A stretch of 64,000 nucleotides of DNA from Pholidichthys leucotaenia (Eukaryota), in the NCBI GenBank assembly GCA_020510985.1, contig CM035843.1, positions 157,251,922-157,315,921 of the forward strand. The letters are read 5' to 3'. Shown here in pieces: positions 2,900 to 60,720 of this stretch. The translations under genes were made by a program, and so were the position numbers. Every line of letters begins with the position of its first letter. Positions within the stretch are counted from its first letter, which is position 1. The notes beneath the pieces are model-generated. The model was given only the letters and a program-made list of their open reading frames with translations. It did not search any database and was not told the origin of the DNA.

Positions 2900-3130
2900 G
2901 TACTATAAAAAAAGTGACAAATTTGCTGGCGGGGGGAGGGTGTGTGGAGGAGTAGCAGATTTGTGTTGGAAAAAGACATAAATTTGTGTGAAAAAAAAAT
3001 TACAAATTTCTAAGAAAGAAGTTGAAAATGCATAAGAAAAAGTAGCAAATCTACCAAAAAAGTCACAGATGTACCAGGAAAAAAGTGAGTTCATGGAAAA
3101 AAAAATATAAAAAAAATCAAACGTGTCCAT
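2900..3130 (+). repeat. A-rich ~22-bp satellite array (monomer approx 'GAGGAAAAAGTCACAAATTTAT'), forward orientation
   Basis: Visible tandem units 'aaaaagacataaatttgtgtgaaaaaaaaattacaaatttctaagaaagaagttgaaaatgcataagaaaaagtagcaaatctacc'. Same family at 3660-4010, 5640-5830, 6380-6720, 8340-8450, 21120-22200, 24170-24560, 59300-60720 and, in reverse orientation, 25400-25700, 26580-26890, 57300-58420. Confidence 0.85.
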
Positions 3131-3635
3131 GTTGATTCCTCTCCACTTCTGTCCTCCTTTCTAGAGTCTAAAGTTGGACATGGGTGAGAAGGGCGGCATG
3201 GCTGAGTGTTCTGCTTCTTCTTCTGATGAGGACATGGGTTTTGGGCTTTTCGATGATGATGTAATAGCGACTCCAGCCAAGCGGTCTTCAGAGAGTGAGC
3301 GTTCCTTACCTTCACCAGTACCACAGAAACACGCTGAGGCCATCTTCCTCCGCAAAAGACCTCGTGCTGCCTTTTATCATCCTCTTTCCAAACTCAGAGG
3401 ACGCATCGGCCGCCCAACGAGACTTTCTACAAAGAAGAAAGATTTGCTTGACAAATGTGAAGATGACGATATGGAGTCTCTTGTCTTGCTTGGTAAAGAC
3501 GTCCTGCCGGAAGTCTCCCCTAGCTTGGACGACTCTGTAAAGGTCTGTGGAGATCAGCTGAGGAAGATCTGCAGTCTCCGTAGGATCATGGAGAGATGCT
3601 GCAGCACTGTTAGCGATTGGTGGTGTCGCTGCTGA
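3130..3635 (+). CDS. Exon-like ORF, family copy 1: conserved acceptor-like block then a 153-aa ORF starting with the acidic 'SSSDEDMGFGLFDDDV' motif (ribosomal P-stalk tail-like); host gene unknown
   Basis: 'ttgattcctctccacttctgtcctcctttctag|AGTCTAAAGTTGGACATGG…'. ORF at 3174-3635. Identical copy at 5894-6355; divergent paralogs at 8508 and 22385. Confidence 0.45.
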
Positions 3636-3659
3636 ATTTGCAGCTGCTTGATGGCACAG

Positions 3660-4010
3660 GCTAGGGCTGGGGGGGTGGGTAGCAGATTTATGAGGAAAAA
3701 GTGACAAATTTACAAGAAAAAGGAGCTAGATTCATGAGAGAAAAAAGTAGCAGATTTAAGAGGAGAAAGTCACAAATTTCTATGGAAAAAGTTAAAATTT
3801 GCCAAGAAAAAATTGACAATTTACCGGAAAAAAGTACCAGATTTTTGAGGAAAAGTCACAAATTCATGAGGAAAAAGTTACAAATTTTTAAGGAAAAAAT
3901 TAGAAATTTACTCGGGGGGGGTGACAAATTTACCAGGAAAAAACTAATTTGAGGCAAAAATTCAAATAGATTCATGAGAGGAAAGTTGCAAATTCAGGAG
4001 TAAAAATTCC
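3660..4010 (+). repeat. ~22-bp satellite array
   Basis: 'gtgacaaatttacaagaaaaaggagctagattcatgagagaaaaaagtagcagatttaagaggagaaagtcacaaatttctatgg…' tandem units. Confidence 0.85.
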
Positions 4011-5639: not shown

Positions 5640-5830
5640 ATTTGCTGGCGGGGGGAGGGGTGTGTGGAGGAGTAGCAGATTTGTGTTGGAAAAAGACACA
5701 AAATTGTGTGAAAAAAAATTTACAAATTTCTAAGAAAGAAGTTGAAAATGCATAAGAAAAAGTAGCAAATCTACCAAAAAAGTCACAGATGTACCAGGAA
5801 AAAAGTGAGTTCATGGAAAAAAAAAAATAA
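5640..5830 (+). repeat. ~22-bp satellite array (duplicate of 2900-3130)
   Basis: Identical to 2920-3110. Confidence 0.85.
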
Positions 5831-5849
5831 AAAAAATCAAACGTGTCCA

Positions 5850-6355
5850 TGTTGATTCCTCTCCACTTCTGTCCTCCTTTCTAGAGTCTAAAGTTGGACA
5901 TGGGTGAGAAGGGCGGCATGGCTGAGTGTTCTGCTTCTTCTTCTGATGAGGACATGGGTTTTGGGCTTTTCGATGATGATGTAATAGCGACTCCAGCCAA
6001 GCGGTCTTCAGAGAGTGAGCGTTCCTTACCTTCACCAGTACCACAGAAACACGCTGAGGCCATCTTCCTCCGCAAAAGACCTCGTGCTGCCTTTTATCAT
6101 CCTCTTTCCAAACTCAGAGGACGCATCGGCCGCCCAACGAGACTTTCTACAAAGAAGAAAGATTTGCTTGACAAATGTGAAGATGACGATATGGAGTCTC
6201 TTGTCTTGCTTGGTAAAGACGTCCTGCCGGAAGTCTCCCCTAGCTTGGACGACTCTGTAAAGGTCTGTGGAGATCAGCTGAGGAAGATCTGCAGTCTCCG
6301 TAGGATCATGGAGAGATGCTGCAGCACTGTTAGCGATTGGTGGTGTCGCTGCTGA
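5850..6355 (+). CDS. Exon-like ORF, family copy 2 (identical to copy 1)
   Basis: ORF at 5894-6355 has the same 153 aa as 3174-3635, with the same upstream polypyrimidine-CTAG block. Confidence 0.45.
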
Positions 6356-6379
6356 ATTTGCAGCTGCTTGATGGCACAG

Positions 6380-6720
6380 GCTAGGGCTGGGGGGGTGGGT
6401 AGCAGATTTATGAGGAAAAAGTGACAAATTTACAAGAAAAAGGAGCTAGATTCATGAGAGAAAAAAGTAGCAGATTTAAGAGGAGAAAGTCACAAATTTC
6501 TATGGAAAAAGTTAAAATTTGCCAAGAAAAAATTGACAATTTACCGGAAAAAAGTACCAGATTTTTGAGGAAAAGTCACAAATTCATGAGGAAAAAGTTA
6601 CAAATTTTTAAGGAAAAAATTAGAAATTTACTCGGGGGGGTGACAAATTTACCAGGAAAAAACTAATTTGAGGCAAAAATTCAGATAGATTCATGAGAGG
6701 AAAAGTTGCAAATTCAGGAG
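6380..6720 (+). repeat. ~22-bp satellite array (duplicate of 3660-4010)
   Basis: Near-identical sequence. Confidence 0.85.
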
Positions 6721-8340: not shown

Positions 8341-8450
8341 ACACTGTATATGGAAGGAAAAGACAAATTAATGGGGGGAAAAATTCAAATTTACAAGAAA
8401 AATCATTGCAAATTTATGAGAAAATGTAAGTTTATAAAAAAAAAATCCAA
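8340..8450 (+). repeat. ~22-bp satellite (short array)
   Basis: 'ggaaggaaaagacaaattaatggggggaaaaattcaaatttacaagaaaaatcattgcaaatttatgagaaaatg'. Confidence 0.7.
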
Positions 8451-8454
8451 GTGT

Positions 8455-8760
8455 CCATGGTGATTCCTCTCCACTTCTGTCCTCCTTTCTAGAGTCAAAA
8501 ATTTGACATGATTCAGAAGCGCCACGTGGCTGAGAGTTCTGCTTCTTCTGATGAAGACATGGTCTTTGGATCTCTCAGCGATGATGTAATGGCAATTCCA
8601 GTTGAGCCTTCTTCAGTTAGGGAGCATTTTTCATCTTTTTTTTCCTTTTTTTTATTAATCAAGAAAATTTACATTAAAATCTCAAAAACTCCCATTACAA
8701 GCCAGGCACTCATACAAGCAATGCAAAAACAGTGGCAGCATAAGATAAGGAAAAATAAAT
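8455..8760 (+). CDS. Exon-like ORF, family copy 3 (divergent): 'SSASSDEDMVFGSLSDDVMAIPVEPSSV…' then decays into A/T-rich low complexity
   Basis: Same conserved upstream block 'tggtgattcctctccacttctgtcctcctttctagagtcaaaaatttgacATG'. ORF at 8508-8762. Confidence 0.35.
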
Positions 8761-15717: not shown

Positions 15718-16343
15718 CTGGGGGGGGGGGGGGGTGTGCTCAAAATACAAAAGGTGGTAGAGCACTGATAAATAAACAGTATGGGATGAAAAAATTTCAA
15801 CTTCACTTCGTGACTGAAACATTTGTCACCACGGGCGCCATCTTGGCCTCCTCCTTTTTCATCCGTTTTTCATCTTCTGCTCCACCTCCACCACCAGAAC
15901 CACAGAAACACGCTGAGGCCATCTTCGACAAAGGATCTCCCAAAATCGTGCACTTGTGGCCGACACACATTGTGGGCTCACGTTGCCACAGAGACAGGAC
16001 TGCATGTGTATTGTGGGGTGTCACGTCTGCAAGGACAGAGGACTCGAATCTGCAGAAGATAACAAGGAAGTGTGAGATTTGTCTCTTTGTCCCACAGAAG
16101 ATGCCCCGGAGAGAATTCCGGTTCATCAGGAAATGAGAGACAATAGGTGAAGCTTCAAAGGGATGCTTTGTAACTGTATGTTTACTGAAGACACCATGTG
16201 ACTTGAATCCTGATGCTGGAAACGTATAAAAGGGTGTTGAGATATGATTCTTTCTCTTTCCTGCTTTGAGAATGCTAGAAGCTGTGTTCTATCAAATAAA
16301 GCTGGTTTATGACTAAACTCAGCCTCGTCATTTGAGCACATCT
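15718..16343 (+). repeat. 5' LTR (starts TG…, ends …CA; contains TATA box and AATAAA)
   Basis: 15794-16343 is identical to 20494-21043. 'tataaaag' at 16225-16232; 'aataaa' at 16295-16300. Confidence 0.8.
16225..16232 (+). promoter_or_regulatory. LTR TATA box (tataaaag); second copy at 20925-20932
   Basis: Canonical TATA in the U3/R region about 70 bp upstream of AATAAA. Confidence 0.5.
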
Positions 16344-56493: not shown

Positions 56494-57299
56494 TAACTCT
56501 CATCCCCATGTGTGAGCTAGCTCACCCAGATGAGATCTGTTGGTCACATGACAAACAGCATTGAGTTTTTTGCATGGTGGAATTTACAAGTACCCCTACT
56601 TTCCTAGGTGATATTTACCTACTCTAAAAGAATTCATATTGAGGGAAAACATGCACAAACATTTATGACAACAAGCAATGCAGATAGAGTCAAATGTAGC
56701 TCTTATTTCATCTCTTCAGCTGCTCTTGGATAGATGCAGCCATAAACCGAAGATCTGAGTCTTTCTTCTTCTGCTCCTCTTCTGACATCTGTGTGTAAAG
56801 TCTGTGTTGTTGGGGGGGGGGGGCACCCAGAAGCTGTGTGGCTCCTGTGGGGGCGATAAAACTTGGAGCGGGGTTAAAACAGTCTTATAAGTTCATAAAT
56901 GAAGCAACAGAGTTCATGAGAGGGAATTGCAGAGTTCTGTCTGGCTTGAGTGTGCTACAATTGTAATTTGCGACTTTTTGAAATTTTAAATTGGCATCTT
57001 TATCATATTTTTGCACTTTTTATTCTTGCAAATTTACGTCTAATTTACATTTATCCATTTGTACCTCATGCTAAATTTGTGAATACTGACCACCCCTTTT
57101 TTTGAAAGATAACAAATGACCCACTGCTGATGCTCATGACACGCTCCATCTGTGCACGTGTGTGTGGTCCAGGTAAGAAGGCCCATGGTGACATCTTGAG
57201 GCTCGTGGCCACTCTTCTGGTTCTGCAGCTCATGAGGTTGATGGAGTTGGAAGAAGGCAAACTGCTCCGAAGTCTCTTCAGCCTGGAGGAGGCCCCTCT

Positions 57300-58420
57300 T
57301 CCCAGGTTTGCAACTTTTTCCAAAATATTTGCAAATTTTCCCTAAATTTGTGATTATTTTTTTTTTCCACAGTCAAATTGTACTTGAACAAAAATAGCAT
57401 TACCTTTACAGTTTGCTAAATTTTTCCAATAAAATTTCAGTGTTTTTCTGGTAAATGTACAATGTTTTTTCTGGTAAATTTGCAACTTTCGCATAGATTT
57501 GCAATTTTTTTCTTGTAAATTTTCAGTGTTTTTCCTCATAAATTTGCAAATTTTCCTCAAAAATTTGCATATTTTTTCATAAATTTGCAACTTCGTTTTG
57601 CATAAATTTGTGCATTTTTTCCTCAAATTTTCAACTTTTTTCTCTTAAATTTGCAATTTTTTCCACATAAATTTGACTTTTTCCTGTAAATTTTCAACAT
57701 TTTGCCATTTTCATCGATTTGCAACATCTCTCCTAAATTTGCAAAAATGTTCCCAAAATTTGCAAATTTTCTCAATCTGCAGCTTTTTCCCCAATCTTAT
57801 ATAGCTGCAGTTGTCTCATAATGTTGTATTTTTTTAATAAATTTGCAACTTTCCCCAAGTCTTACAAATTTATGCATTTTTCTCATTTACATAGATTTGC
57901 AACATTTTCCCCTAAATTTGTAAATTTTCTGAAAATCTGCCACTTCCTTTTCAATCTCGTAAATTTGTAACTTTTTTCTGATAAGTTTACAAATTTATCT
58001 CAAATTTGTAACTTTTTTCCAGTCTCGCAACTTTGAAAATTTTTCCTAAACATAAAACTTTCCCCCAATCCCTAAAATTGTAACTTTTTTCCAATAAATT
58101 TGTAAATTGTCCCTAATTTTGCAGCTTTTTTCCCTGTGTCTTAAAATTGAGACTTTTTCTAATCTTGTAAATTTTACAACTTTTTCCAAAATATCTGTAA
58201 ATGTTATTTAAATTTGTGACTTTTGTCCCAGCCTCGTTGTTTTGCTAATTTTTAATGAATTCCCAACTTTTCCCCAATCTTGTAAATTTGCAACATGTTC
58301 CTATAAAGTTCCAAATTTTCTCAAAATCTGCAACTTCTGTTTCGTTCTTGTAGATTTGTAACTTTTTTCTGGTAAATATGCAACTTTTTGTTAAATTTGT
58401 GACTTTCCCTCAGTCTCTTA
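57300..58420 (-). repeat. ~22-bp satellite, ~1.1-kb array in reverse orientation, immediately upstream of the ARF-domain exon
   Basis: 'aaatttgcaactttttccaaaatatttgcaaattttccctaaatttgtga…ctcataaatttgcaaattttcctcaaaaatttgcatattttttcataaatttgcaacttcg…'. Confidence 0.9.
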
Positions 58421-58498: not shown

Positions 58499-59189
58499 AC
58501 CAAAGTTCTGGGATCAGGTGAAGAAGGCGGTGGACTGGGCTTACCGGGCCGACCGCCACTACCCCTGCATCTGCAGCCGGTTGGAGTTCGGCTTCAGCTG
58601 GGAGTCCGCCACCCGTCAGCTCCTGGGTTACGAGAAACCGCCTCCCTTCTCTCCCCTCAGCTGTCTCGATCTGCAGATCACCACAACCAGGAGAGAATTG
58701 AAGATTGTCATCCTCGGGTTGGACAACGCCGGAAAAACAAGTATCCTCTACAAGATGAAGATAGGAGAGGCGATCCCCACCATCCCCACCATCGGCTTTA
58801 ACGTGGAGACCGTGGAACACCGAGACATGGTCTTCAACCTTTGGGACGTTGGCGGTCAGAAGAAGATCAGGCCTCTGTGGCGCCACTACATCTACGACAT
58901 TCATGGTATAATGTTTGTGGTGGACAGCAGCGACAAGGTGAGACTAAACGAAGCCAGGGAGGAGCTGAACAAAGTCCTCACTGAAGACGAACTCGGAGAC
59001 ACCCCGCTGCTGGTTTACGCCAACAAACTGGATCTCCCCGACGCCATGGATGACGCAGAGATCGCAGAGAAGCTGGGCCTGCACGCCCTCCATCAGCGCC
59101 GCTGGTGTATCCAGCCCTGCAGTAGCATCACGGCGGAGGGGCTGTATGAGGGCCTGGACTGGTTCTGCTTCCAGATGATCCAGGAATGA
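58499..59189 (+). CDS. Terminal coding exon of an ARF-family small GTPase domain (P-loop GLDNAGKT, switch '[11 protein letters not shown]', 'WDVGGQ', 'ANKLDL', C-terminus '…[16 protein letters not shown]'), preceded in the same exon by a ~75-aa non-GTPase extension with no in-frame ATG (acceptor 'tttctcttgcag|AC', intron phase 2)
   Basis: Frame of ORF-track entry 58518-59189 (that start is a GTG). Strong ARF/ARL family motifs. The nearest architecture analogy is an ARF domain appended to a larger protein (TRIM23/ARD1-like), but no upstream exons were identified. Confidence 0.7.
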
Positions 59190-59299: not shown

Positions 59300-60720
59300 G
59301 TAACTTAAAATTTTAGAGAAAAGTTTTCCTTCATGAGAGTGGGAAAGAACAGCAAATTATGAGGGGGTGGAAAATGTACAAAACTGGGCAAAAAATGTTG
59401 CAAAATTTACAAAGGGGAGGAGGCTGCCGATTTAAAAGATGAGGAAAAGTCACAAATTTACAAGACAAAAAGCAGCCACGAATATATGAGATGGGAAAAA
59501 GTTTCATATTTATGAAACCAGGGTAAAATTCACAGATTTACGAGGGCAAGTTGCAAATTTACGGGGAGGGGGTTCACAAAATATGAGACTCAATGAATAG
59601 TTGCAAATTTACAAAATGAGGAAAAAGTTGTGAATTTTAAAAACTTGACAAAGTTGCAGATTTATGGAACTAAGGCAAAAGTCACAAATTCATGAATCAG
59701 GAAGTAGTTACAAATTTACAAGGCTGGGGGAAAGTTGCAAATTTACAAAATGAGGAAAAAGTGAAAAAAAATTAAGACGTGGAAAAAGTCGCAAATTTAT
59801 AAAATGAGGAAAGAGTTGCAAATTTATAAAATGGTGAAAAAGTACCAAATTTATAAAATAATAACAAATAATACATTTTATTTATGGGCACCTTTCATGA
59901 CACTCAAGGTCACCTTACAATAATAAAAAAAATAAAAATTAAATAGAAAACTGAAGAAAAAGTAGCGAATTTATAAAATGGGGAAAAGCAGCAAATTTAT
60001 AAAATAATAACAAATAATACATTTTATTTATGGGCACCTTTCATGACACTCAAGGTCACTTTACAATAACAAAAAATAAATAAAAATTAAGCTTAAATAG
60101 AAAAATGAAGAAAAAGTAGCAAATTTATAAAATGGGGGGAAAAGTCACAAATTTATGAGAAAAAAAGTCAAATTTTTTTTAAAAATGTGAAATTGTCACA
60201 AATTTACAAGACAGAAGTCACAATTTTACAAGATGAGGAAAAGGCTGCAAATTTAATAAACTAGGCCAAAAGTTACAAATTTATGAATCAGGAAGTATTT
60301 ATAAATTTACGACGGTAGGGAAGAGTTGCAAATTTGCGAGACTACGAAGAAAAGTTGCAAGTTTACAAAATGAAGAAAAAATTGAAAATATGAAGGTGAA
60401 GTCGCAAATTTATGAAACTTCAAATTCTCAAATTTACAAAACAGGAAAATGTTGCAAATTTTTGAAACGGCATGGAAAGTTGCAAGTTTATAAGAAGAAG
60501 TCACAAAGTTGAATTTAACTGTTGATTTTAATAAAGGTAAATTGCAATTTACCAAAAGAGCCCTGCAAATTTAGGGGAAAATTTCCACAAATTCGTGGGG
60601 AAAAAAATTACATTTTGATGATAAAAGCAAAAAAATTTACAAAAAAAGAAATCGCATTTAAATGGAAAAAAACTGACCCGAATCTACATGACAAAAGTTG
60701 TAATTTTCCAAAAGATTTAA
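59300..60720 (+). repeat. ~22-bp satellite, ~1.4-kb array in forward orientation, containing a 2 x ~135-bp higher-order duplicate (59855-59990 and 59990-60125)
   Basis: 'agttgcaaatttacaaaatgaggaaaaagttgtgaattttaaaaacttgacaaagttgcagatttatggaactaaggcaaaagtcacaaattcatgaatc…'. Confidence 0.9.

Follow-up and report, generated by a model that had tools for sequence, protein, structure and literature searches.

Two identical exon-like reading frames in a window of 64,000 nucleotides of the Pholidichthys leucotaenia genome (the whole stretch that we analyzed, on contig CM035843.1) encode a peptide equal to the C-terminal tail of ribosomal stalk protein P0. The frames (copies 1 and 2) arose by recent duplication of a short paralogue of the hypervariable-exon head in parp4, the gene of the vault PARP, and the peptide is the local form of a motif that belongs to this exon family. 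Judging by the sequence comparisons presented here, the look-alike is probably convergent rather than a mimic of the stalk. An exact 11-mer is much to ascribe to convergence, and this counts against our reading. Four paralogous exon heads lie in series on the plus strand, all with the same 3' splice site.

3135..3164, plus strand: 3' splice site of copy 1, with the polypyrimidine tract ...ctctccacttctgtcctcctttctag (read from the sequence)
3165..3635, plus strand: copy 1, a parp4 linker-exon head with a 156-codon frame from the acceptor to TGA (ORF, collinearity with fish PARP4 linkers)
3222..3260, plus strand: the SDEDMGFGLFDDD motif of copy 1 (translation; 11/11 to the P0 tail)
5885..6355, plus strand: copy 2, identical to copy 1; it belongs to the second of two tandem units of 2.72 kb (motif at 5942-5980)
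8493..8628, plus strand: copy 3, a cut-off exon head with SDEDMVFGSLSDD at 8547-8585 (homology to copy 1 stops at 8628)
22370..23823, plus strand: copy 4, the complete linker exon that the gene uses, with DADEDFGVISDDD at 22403-22441 (donor gaa/GTGAGT)

The match to the P0 tail

The original prediction had described open reading frames at 3174-3635 (153 amino acids) and 5894-6355, together with the peptide that they encode, and these read from the sequence as described. The two frames are identical, both encode ...ECSASSSDEDMGFGLFDDDVIATPAKRSS..., and each holds the 13-residue motif SDEDMGFGLFDDD (3222-3260 in copy 1 and 5942-5980 in copy 2). The claimed resemblance to the P-stalk tail is also real. 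The figure given for it, 10 of 11 residues, refers to P1 and P2 and is too low: in a phmmer search against PDB chains, the P0 tail ESEESDEDMGFGLFD was identical to the copy 1 peptide SDEDMGFGLFD at 11 of 11 positions. All 15 phmmer matches to the peptide among PDB chains were P0, P1, or P2. Against SDEDMGFGLFD, approximately 128,000 11-mers from the six-frame translation of the window gave a background of at most 5 of 11 identities (nine cases), and the exon copies scored 11, 11, and 7. The motif match is above the background chance of the window.

The similarity ends with the motif. Copy 1 did not reach the gathering score of the Pfam model Ribosomal_60s (PF00428), scoring 8 bits against a cutoff of 28.1, and the match was limited to model positions 77 to 88, i.e., the last 12 positions; the result is thus a motif match and not a P protein. 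Outside the 11 residues, neither Pfam nor phmmer against PDB chains found any similarity to P proteins. The tails of the stalk proteins P0, P1, and P2, SD(D/E)DMGFGLFD, share all 11 residues with the motif, including the acidic D/E run and GFGLFD. In the stalk proteins, however, this tail is a free C terminus and accompanies a dimerization domain and a hinge, whereas the motif of the parp4 exon is internal, and the copy has neither of these parts and unrelated flanks. The motif occupies residues 20 to 32 of the 156-codon frame that opens at the splice acceptor, in the context ...SSSDEDMGFGLFDDDVIATP..., so its proposed position at the N terminus of a protein does not hold. Nor does it form an extreme C terminus in copy 1, where GLFD is followed by DD and 122 further residues (124 in all).

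In the stalk tail, the acidic D/E run and GFGLFD are the residues contacted by the ricin A chain and trichosanthin (PMC5086656); the crystallized P2 peptide carries DDD where copy 1 has DED (PMC5086656). We also searched for papers containing "GFGLFD." Among the matches listed, the titles and abstracts were all on ribosomal P proteins, and PARP4 appeared in none of them.

The host gene and its hypervariable exon

We identified the host gene from the exons downstream of the copies, which encode the MINT/MVP-ID domain of PARP4 (PF26156; PDB 9bw6 and 9bw7; Lodwick et al. 2025, PMC12280208). This domain docks PARP4 inside the vault cage (PMC12280208). The downstream exons are the following.

25846..25921, plus strand: small parp4 exon (..RDHGLEARELSKPRWRTNIFKMQHP) (splice model)
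26060..26162, plus strand: exon of the MINT (MVP-interaction) domain, DGYWELTTELG... (human PARP4 match, splice model)
57173..57305, plus strand: exon of the MINT domain, KKAHGDILRLVATLLVLQLMR... (human PARP4 match, splice model)
58499..59189, plus strand: last exon, running from the end of MINT into an in-frame ARF GTPase domain (58695-59186) and a stop (splice model)

A conceptual splice of five exons (22370-23823/25846-25921/26060-26162/57173-57305/58499-59189) gave an uninterrupted frame of 818 codons, and each of its junctions is flanked by AG/GT. The largest exon of this model is copy 4, which alone among the copies reads in frame into the MINT exons; copies 1 and 2 have no in-frame connection to the domain. 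The exons were located (at approximately 26.06, 57.17, and 58.50 kb) with the human PARP4 C terminus and VWA5A as probes that served for location only, and the MINT part of this placement was later confirmed against a real PDB chain: human PARP4 residues 1574 to 1715 match the spliced downstream exons with an E value of 1.6e-29. The probe comparison found no VIT or VWA similarity within the 64-kb window. A protein search for the host gene led to the same family. With copy 4 plus the downstream exons as the query, the only real matches were teleost PF26156 (PARP4_MVP-ID) proteins, with 64 to 74% identity in the best 20 or so; the PF26156 proteins of Lates, Zoarces, and Dicentrarchus were 70 to 74% identical to the composite query. 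When the query consisted of the MINT exons and the ARF domain, the matches were swamped by ARF proteins.

The other half of the gene can be seen in relatives. Directly upstream of the MVP-ID model, and on its strand, Dicentrarchus, Lates, and Poecilia mexicana have a gene model that contains BRCT, WGR-like, PARP, VIT, and VWA domains. The upstream model of Megalops, also on the same strand, has BRCT, WGR-like, PARP, and VIT matches, VWA not being among the matches listed. The upstream BRCT-to-VWA model and the MVP-ID model of these fish look like one gene split by annotation. Logan RNA contig SRR5997774, from another fish, reads VSTSELQKTRNS-MAPLSGLDEEEEESDPDMDFGLFDEYIPSAPAP...PPPPP...MINT and joins a VWA-side exon (VSTSELQKTR) to SDPDMDFGLFDE, a poly-Pro tract, and the MINT domain; where the contig begins, it matches the VWA-side exon found in Lates and Dicentrarchus. 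From the MINT exons downstream, the upstream half-gene in relatives, and the RNA contig that joins the VWA side to MINT, we infer that the motif exon is an internal parp4 exon, the likely teleost counterpart of the "largest exon" of the gene. The frame around the motif had been taken for the start of a separate nonribosomal protein; it is instead an extra copy of the head of the parp4 hypervariable linker exon.

Across vertebrates, the largest exon of PARP4 differs greatly in length and sequence; it is disordered and under positive selection, and it has been hypothesized to bind pathogen proteins and bring them to vaults (Daugherty et al. 2014, PMC4038475). The exon described here encodes the linker that leads from the VWA region to MINT, the vault-docking domain. 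It agrees with human exon 30 (PMC4038475) in gene and place, just before the MINT exons; the human region is likewise disordered, of low complexity, and rich in Pro, Ser, and Ala, with a high dN/dS ratio and large variation in length and sequence between species. Between human and fish, the linker exon has no detectable similarity, while MINT aligns at the E value given above. The head of copy 4 showed no similarity to human PARP4 among PDB sequences. An alignment of this head to human "SEDFEEDGLGVL" is accordingly a tentative lead only.

In three respects, the fish locus differs from the exon of PMC4038475: there are four heads, and every one has a splice acceptor to itself; two of the copies are short and terminate at a stop codon; and the head motif occurs in a form identical to the P0 tail. 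PMC4038475 describes none of these features, and neither do the titles and abstracts of the listed papers containing GFGLFD.

Separately, we observed that the last parp4 exon of the window fuses the ARF GTPase domain (58695-59186) in frame to the MINT domain. In the seven other fish loci examined, the 10 kb that follow the MVP-ID (3' parp4) model yielded no ARF domain. Proteins of the TRIM23/ARD1 type carry a C-terminal ARF domain behind RING, B-box, and coiled-coil regions. Both arrangements place an ARF GTPase without an N-terminal amphipathic helix at the C terminus of another protein, but here the partner is the vault-docking domain of PARP4.

Duplication and splicing of the exon heads

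The suggestion that the motif lies in an exon-like frame and not in a ribosomal protein gene was borne out. A polypyrimidine tract and AG directly precede position 3165. The same acceptor stands nearly letter for letter before 3165, 5885, 8493, and 22370 and is followed by AGTC... and the same frame. The last 31 bases of the copy 1 acceptor are identical before copy 3 and almost identical before copy 4, and the acceptor plus the first 100 to 140 nucleotides or so are common to all copies. Beyond this shared head, the copies take different courses. Copy 4 is an exon of 1,454 nucleotides with poly-Pro tracts and, at 22843-23617, approximately 18 units of a 27-bp repeat encoding FSFGAAPQS. An exhaustive HMMER search with copy 4 returned 21 matches, all on Ala/Pro/Gly-rich repeats and none on the motif head. 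The homology of copy 3 to copy 1 covers 199 nucleotides at 80% identity and then breaks off, and its exon head stops after 45 codons. Copies 3 and 4 had been called degenerate versions of the motif, and they are: copy 3 reads SDEDMVFGSLSDD, and copy 4 reads DADEDFGVISDDD, without M-G and L-F.

Copies 1 and 2 form head-to-tail units of approximately 2.72 kb that are 99.25% identical over 2,798 bp (21 differences), and each unit also holds arrays of a 22-bp satellite and a fragment of a Sleeping Beauty-type transposase. This duplication is very recent. All 21 differences lie in the flanks, and a stretch of 814 bp that includes the exon (3107-3920) has none. Homogenization explains this stretch as likely as selection does, since it includes noncoding satellite.

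How the two copies might be spliced is constrained by their donors. A donor scan found no phase-2 donor in copies 1 and 2 with which to reach the exon at 25846. The only donor of copy 1, aag/GTCTGT at 3543, is of phase 0 and weak (C at +3); from it, the frame would continue at the acceptors of copies 2 and 4 but not at the exon at 25846. Both copies end in a stop codon, and poly(A)-like signals follow approximately 450 to 550 nucleotides past the stop, which makes an alternative last exon possible. Copies 1 and 2 could thus be alternative last exons (giving PARP4 without MINT), weak cassettes, or dead. The copy 1 frame of 156 codons stayed open in only 8 of 20,000 shuffles. That it is open despite a dS of approximately 0.38 from copy 3 argues that copy 1 is translated now or was until recently, with the motif possibly exposed on a real protein. 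On record, we found no exact matches to the copy 1 open reading frame or to that of the last exon, and a search of 5.8 billion proteins with copy 1 gave no match at an E value of ≤0.01. A further candidate, in which the tail of copy 1 is a processed copy of the downstream exons, was rejected, as it gave only insignificant matches.

We consider it rather unlikely, though a serious alternative, that copies 1 to 3 are dead pseudo-exons, i.e., unexpressed segmental duplicates decaying among transposons and satellite, either within an intron or upstream, in which the motif is idle. The early end of copy 3 would fit such decay, as would the position of copies 1 and 2 between satellite arrays and transposase fragments, their terminal stops and lack of a strong donor of compatible phase, a dN/dS ratio near neutral, and the missing protein homologue of copy 1 in the 5.8 billion sequences. 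Decay is harder to reconcile with a splice acceptor that is perfectly preserved, with the open frame in the face of substantial divergence from copies 3 and 4, and with the fact that the exon of copies 1 and 2 falls in the stretch without differences.

The high identity of the two units over 2.8 kb, with the differences clustered at the unit ends, could also come from an assembly artifact, with a single copy wrongly represented twice as haplotypes 1 and 2 of one locus. This is improbable, as the units follow each other head to tail within a single contiguous sequence and align without a break, and the independent, diverged copy 3 shows that the locus does duplicate. Such an artifact would alter the copy number and not the motif.

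The motif in other fishes and its possible role

The window and other fishes gave the following forms of the motif, all located at or shortly before the start of the linker exon.

SDEDMGFGLFDDD: copies 1 and 2 of the window
SDEDMVFGSLSDD: copy 3 of the window
DADEDFGVISDDD: copy 4 of the window
SDPDMDFGLFDEY: RNA contig L001
FSDEQEMSGFGLRG and FSDEQEMEGFGLGG: Trematomus, in an internally duplicated linker
FSDDKKWQALVSGL: Dissostichus, the other notothenioid in the set
EEEEEDMDMGFYLAD: Lates
MPDMGFVQDQ: Dicentrarchus
EMDRDEPMKFLGEEDFLLGSS: Scomber
ESDDATLVDPIFEFLPSG: Zoarces
MDLDFFDD: Characodon
EYDDFYSLY: P. mexicana

The closest form occurs in the expressed mRNA of another fish, where SDPDMDFGLFDE in the RNA contig matches the stalk tail at 9 of 11 positions. 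Trematomus has SDEQEMSGFGL twice, and Dissostichus has SDDKKWQALVSGL. In Zoarces, Scomber, Poecilia, and Characodon, there is an acidic run with F/L residues only. GFGL(F) is common to three lineages, which hints at some constraint, and the stalk-like form may be old but quick to decay. From these alignments, the feature of the family appears to be (M-x-)F-G/D-hydrophobic after an acidic run, with a poly-Pro tract further along. We would describe the motif as a putative, weakly constrained acidic-hydrophobic linear motif (roughly SD-E-x-x-M-x-GFGL) of the hypervariable exon, present in several percomorphs. A Gambusia sequence, DMGFGSLSD (P0154), was set aside, as no acidic run precedes it and its place is after MINT in a gene model that is partial and scrambled. 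Copies 3 and 4 and some orthologues conform to the pattern of LC3-interaction motifs (acidic run plus F-x-x-L/I/V), from which copy 1 departs with F-G-L-F.

Copy 1 is collinear with the linkers of Trematomus, Fundulus, and the RNA contig, in which the motif is followed by a P-x-P-x-(K/D)HA block and then a basic block. In a BLASTP comparison of copy 1 with 56 sequences, the L001 protein P0136 matched at an E value of 7.8e-4 (40 amino acids, 42%), Fundulus P0134 matched at 0.014 (47% identity), and Trematomus matched at 0.94. The original prediction had proposed conservation among orthologues and dN/dS across copies as checks. Looser forms of the motif are present in some percomorphs, while it is lost in a close relative of a motif-bearing species. 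The dN/dS ratio between copies 1 and 3 was 0.72 (dS of 0.38), a value near neutral and of low power over 45 codons; a high dN/dS ratio is normal for the functional largest PARP4 exon (PMC4038475). The prediction had also left a choice between copies 1 and 2 retaining an ancestral motif and a chance peak in an acidic xDEDxGFGxxDD family, and the latter is nearer to the evidence. Part of the former survives: GFGL(F) is shared with outgroups (SDPDMDFGLFDE and SDEQEMSGFGL of Trematomus), and the stalk-like form may be ancestral, not peculiar to copies 1 and 2.

The alignment of copies 1 and 3 bears on how the exact match arose. It is ungapped across the motif, the sole indel being one missing Ser codon just upstream, and the insertion of foreign sequence is therefore excluded. 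A retro-inserted fragment of a P gene was ruled out by this alignment and by the end of the P similarity at 11 residues. The L-F-D codons of copies 1 and 3 differ at six of nine bases, while their flanks are approximately 80% identical, and this local divergence could reflect selection or a templated event.

We favor, with moderate confidence, the reading that copies 1 and 2 are a duplicated parp4 linker-exon head whose identity to P0 is a convergent peak and whose motif would serve as an internal docking peptide rather than a stalk tail. In this reading, copy 4 is the exon that joins MINT in frame, copy 3 is a truncated relic, and copies 1 and 2 are recent tandem units. The stalk-like peptide arose in place, by point substitutions and not from a ribosomal P-gene insertion, and its exact identity to the P0 tail would be the peak of a weakly constrained motif. 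If spliced in, copies 1 and 2 may end the protein early (PARP4 without MINT) or add an extra cassette through the weak phase-0 donor. Whatever its partner, the motif would act as an internal acidic/hydrophobic docking peptide of a pathogen-facing disordered region.

A functional mimic of the P-stalk tail is a good deal harder to accept, and we regard it as quite improbable on the sequence. A PARP4 isoform would then dock or titrate translational GTPases, GCN2, ribosome-inactivating toxins, or pathogen proteins, perhaps inside vaults. Besides the identity at 11 of 11 positions and the frame kept open in copy 1, this proposal can draw on the presence of all toxin-contact residues (the acidic D/E run and GFGLFD; PMC5086656), on related motifs in the expressed mRNA of another fish and in Trematomus, and on the proposal that the host exon, which is positively selected, forms a surface for binding pathogens (PMC4038475). 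Cryo-tomography from 2026 found that approximately 8% of Dictyostelium vaults enclose 80S ribosomes (PMC13100048), which adds to the interest of a stalk-like peptide carried by a vault-resident protein, as context and not as evidence. The motif is internal, however, with 124 residues after it and no free C terminus, and copy 4, the copy in frame with the rest of the gene, is without M-G and L-F. It is also lost in Dissostichus, Zoarces, Scomber, and poeciliids, the dN/dS ratio is 0.72, and a strong in-frame donor is absent from copies 1 and 2. Short-patch gene conversion from an rplp0/1/2 gene or a processed pseudogene, sharpening a similar acidic motif into the exact P0 tail, is scarcely credible: it could account for the divergent L-F-D codons between flanks of approximately 80% identity, and the flanking GATGA(G/A)GACATGG and TTTGG would presumably give microhomology to a P gene, but SDPDMDFGLFDE of another species has L-F-D without such an event, P-protein similarity is absent beyond the 11 residues, and the window itself contains no P gene for comparison.

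If convergence in a spare exon copy has produced the match by accident alone, it calls for caution, as short acidic-hydrophobic motifs of disordered, fast-evolving exons can match famous sequences exactly. It is very improbable, though conceivable from the sequence, that the positively selected, disordered vault-PARP exon of percomorphs carries a bait copying the P-stalk tail, multiplied here into alternative cassettes of which one has the exact P0 tail, so that a PARP4 isoform, within vaults or outside them, could capture stalk-docking factors (toxins, pathogen proteins, translational GTPases, or GCN2). If this were true, vaults, which can enclose ribosomes, would be linked to translation control or to defense against toxins or viruses. 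The stalk-tail head and its looser versions in other fishes provide a concrete short peptide for what the hypervariable PARP4 exon might bind.

Split gene models and the repeat-rich linker exon

The public annotations of Dicentrarchus, Lates, Poecilia mexicana and Megalops (loci L002, L003, L007 and L008) divide parp4 between a pair of neighbouring gene models; one covers the enzyme half at the N-terminus, and the other is a C-terminal protein named either "PARP4 MVP-ID domain-containing" or "formin-like." In all four, the split falls at the hypervariable linker exon. An RNA contig from another fish (L001; SRR5997774) joins both halves, with several of the VWA-side exons skipped.

We located two kinds of tandem repeat in and around the copies of this exon in the window:

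22843-23617, 27-bp tandem repeats inside copy 4 (the full linker exon), about 18 units
2900-3100, 3696-3911, 6416-6631, 8350-8430, 21800-22100 and 59340-59700, A-rich minisatellite of 20 to 25 bp

The 27-bp units encode FSFGAAPQS-type repeats, the only part of the copy 4 exon with any similarity in a search of 1.84 billion proteins. The A-rich minisatellite (consensus, AAAAAGTGACAAATTTACAAGA) flanks all copies of the exon head, recurs beyond the last exon and may have promoted the exon duplications. The two 2.72-kb tandem units that carry copies 1 and 2 differ from each other at 21 positions. Because none of these differences lies within an 814-bp stretch (3107-3920 versus 5827-6640), which comprises the exon and the satellite downstream of it, the comparison suggests that this stretch has been recently homogenised or is under selection.

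Transposons within the locus

One retrotransposon shares sequence with the exon copies:

about 15.6-20.8 kb, Gypsy-type element
15892-15926 and 20592-20626, stretches in its long terminal repeats (LTRs) matching copy 1

The element is intact, with a pol of 1,045 amino acids containing reverse transcriptase, RNase H and integrase domains. Each LTR includes a 35-nt match to copy 1 at 97% identity (copy 1 positions 3313-3347, which encode PQKHAEAIF), and about 60 nt are similar to copy 4 (FSSAPPPPP...). The LTRs seem to hold a captured fragment of the parp4 exon family, or the reverse.

Transposons are also dense in a single long intron:

26163-57172, intron within the MINT domain, 31 kb

It is crowded with non-LTR reverse transcriptases and fragments of Tc1/mariner-type transposases, and a repeat unit of 7 to 10 kb is present three times (at 30.7, 37.6 and 48.0 kb). 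The entire MVP-ID gene model spans just 3 to 5 kb in Lates, Dicentrarchus and Scomber.

An ARF domain in the last parp4 exon

The last exon encodes more than the end of MINT:

58499-59189, last parp4 exon, MINT end plus ARF GTPase domain (ARF part, 58695-59186)

The ARF domain is complete (Pfam Arf, 3e-66) and follows in frame on the end of MINT, the domain that docks to the vault. It contains no introns and lacks the N-terminal amphipathic helix; the P-loop and NKLD motifs are both intact. Its best ARF relatives are only about 62 to 64% identical to it. At the seven other fish loci, no ARF domain turned up in the 10 kb that follow the MVP-ID gene model (3' parp4), and in the five of these species with proteins read (including Scomber and Trematomus) the protein ends in ...LQKTAAPLLVH. 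This gene looks like a lineage-specific PARP4-ARF fusion.
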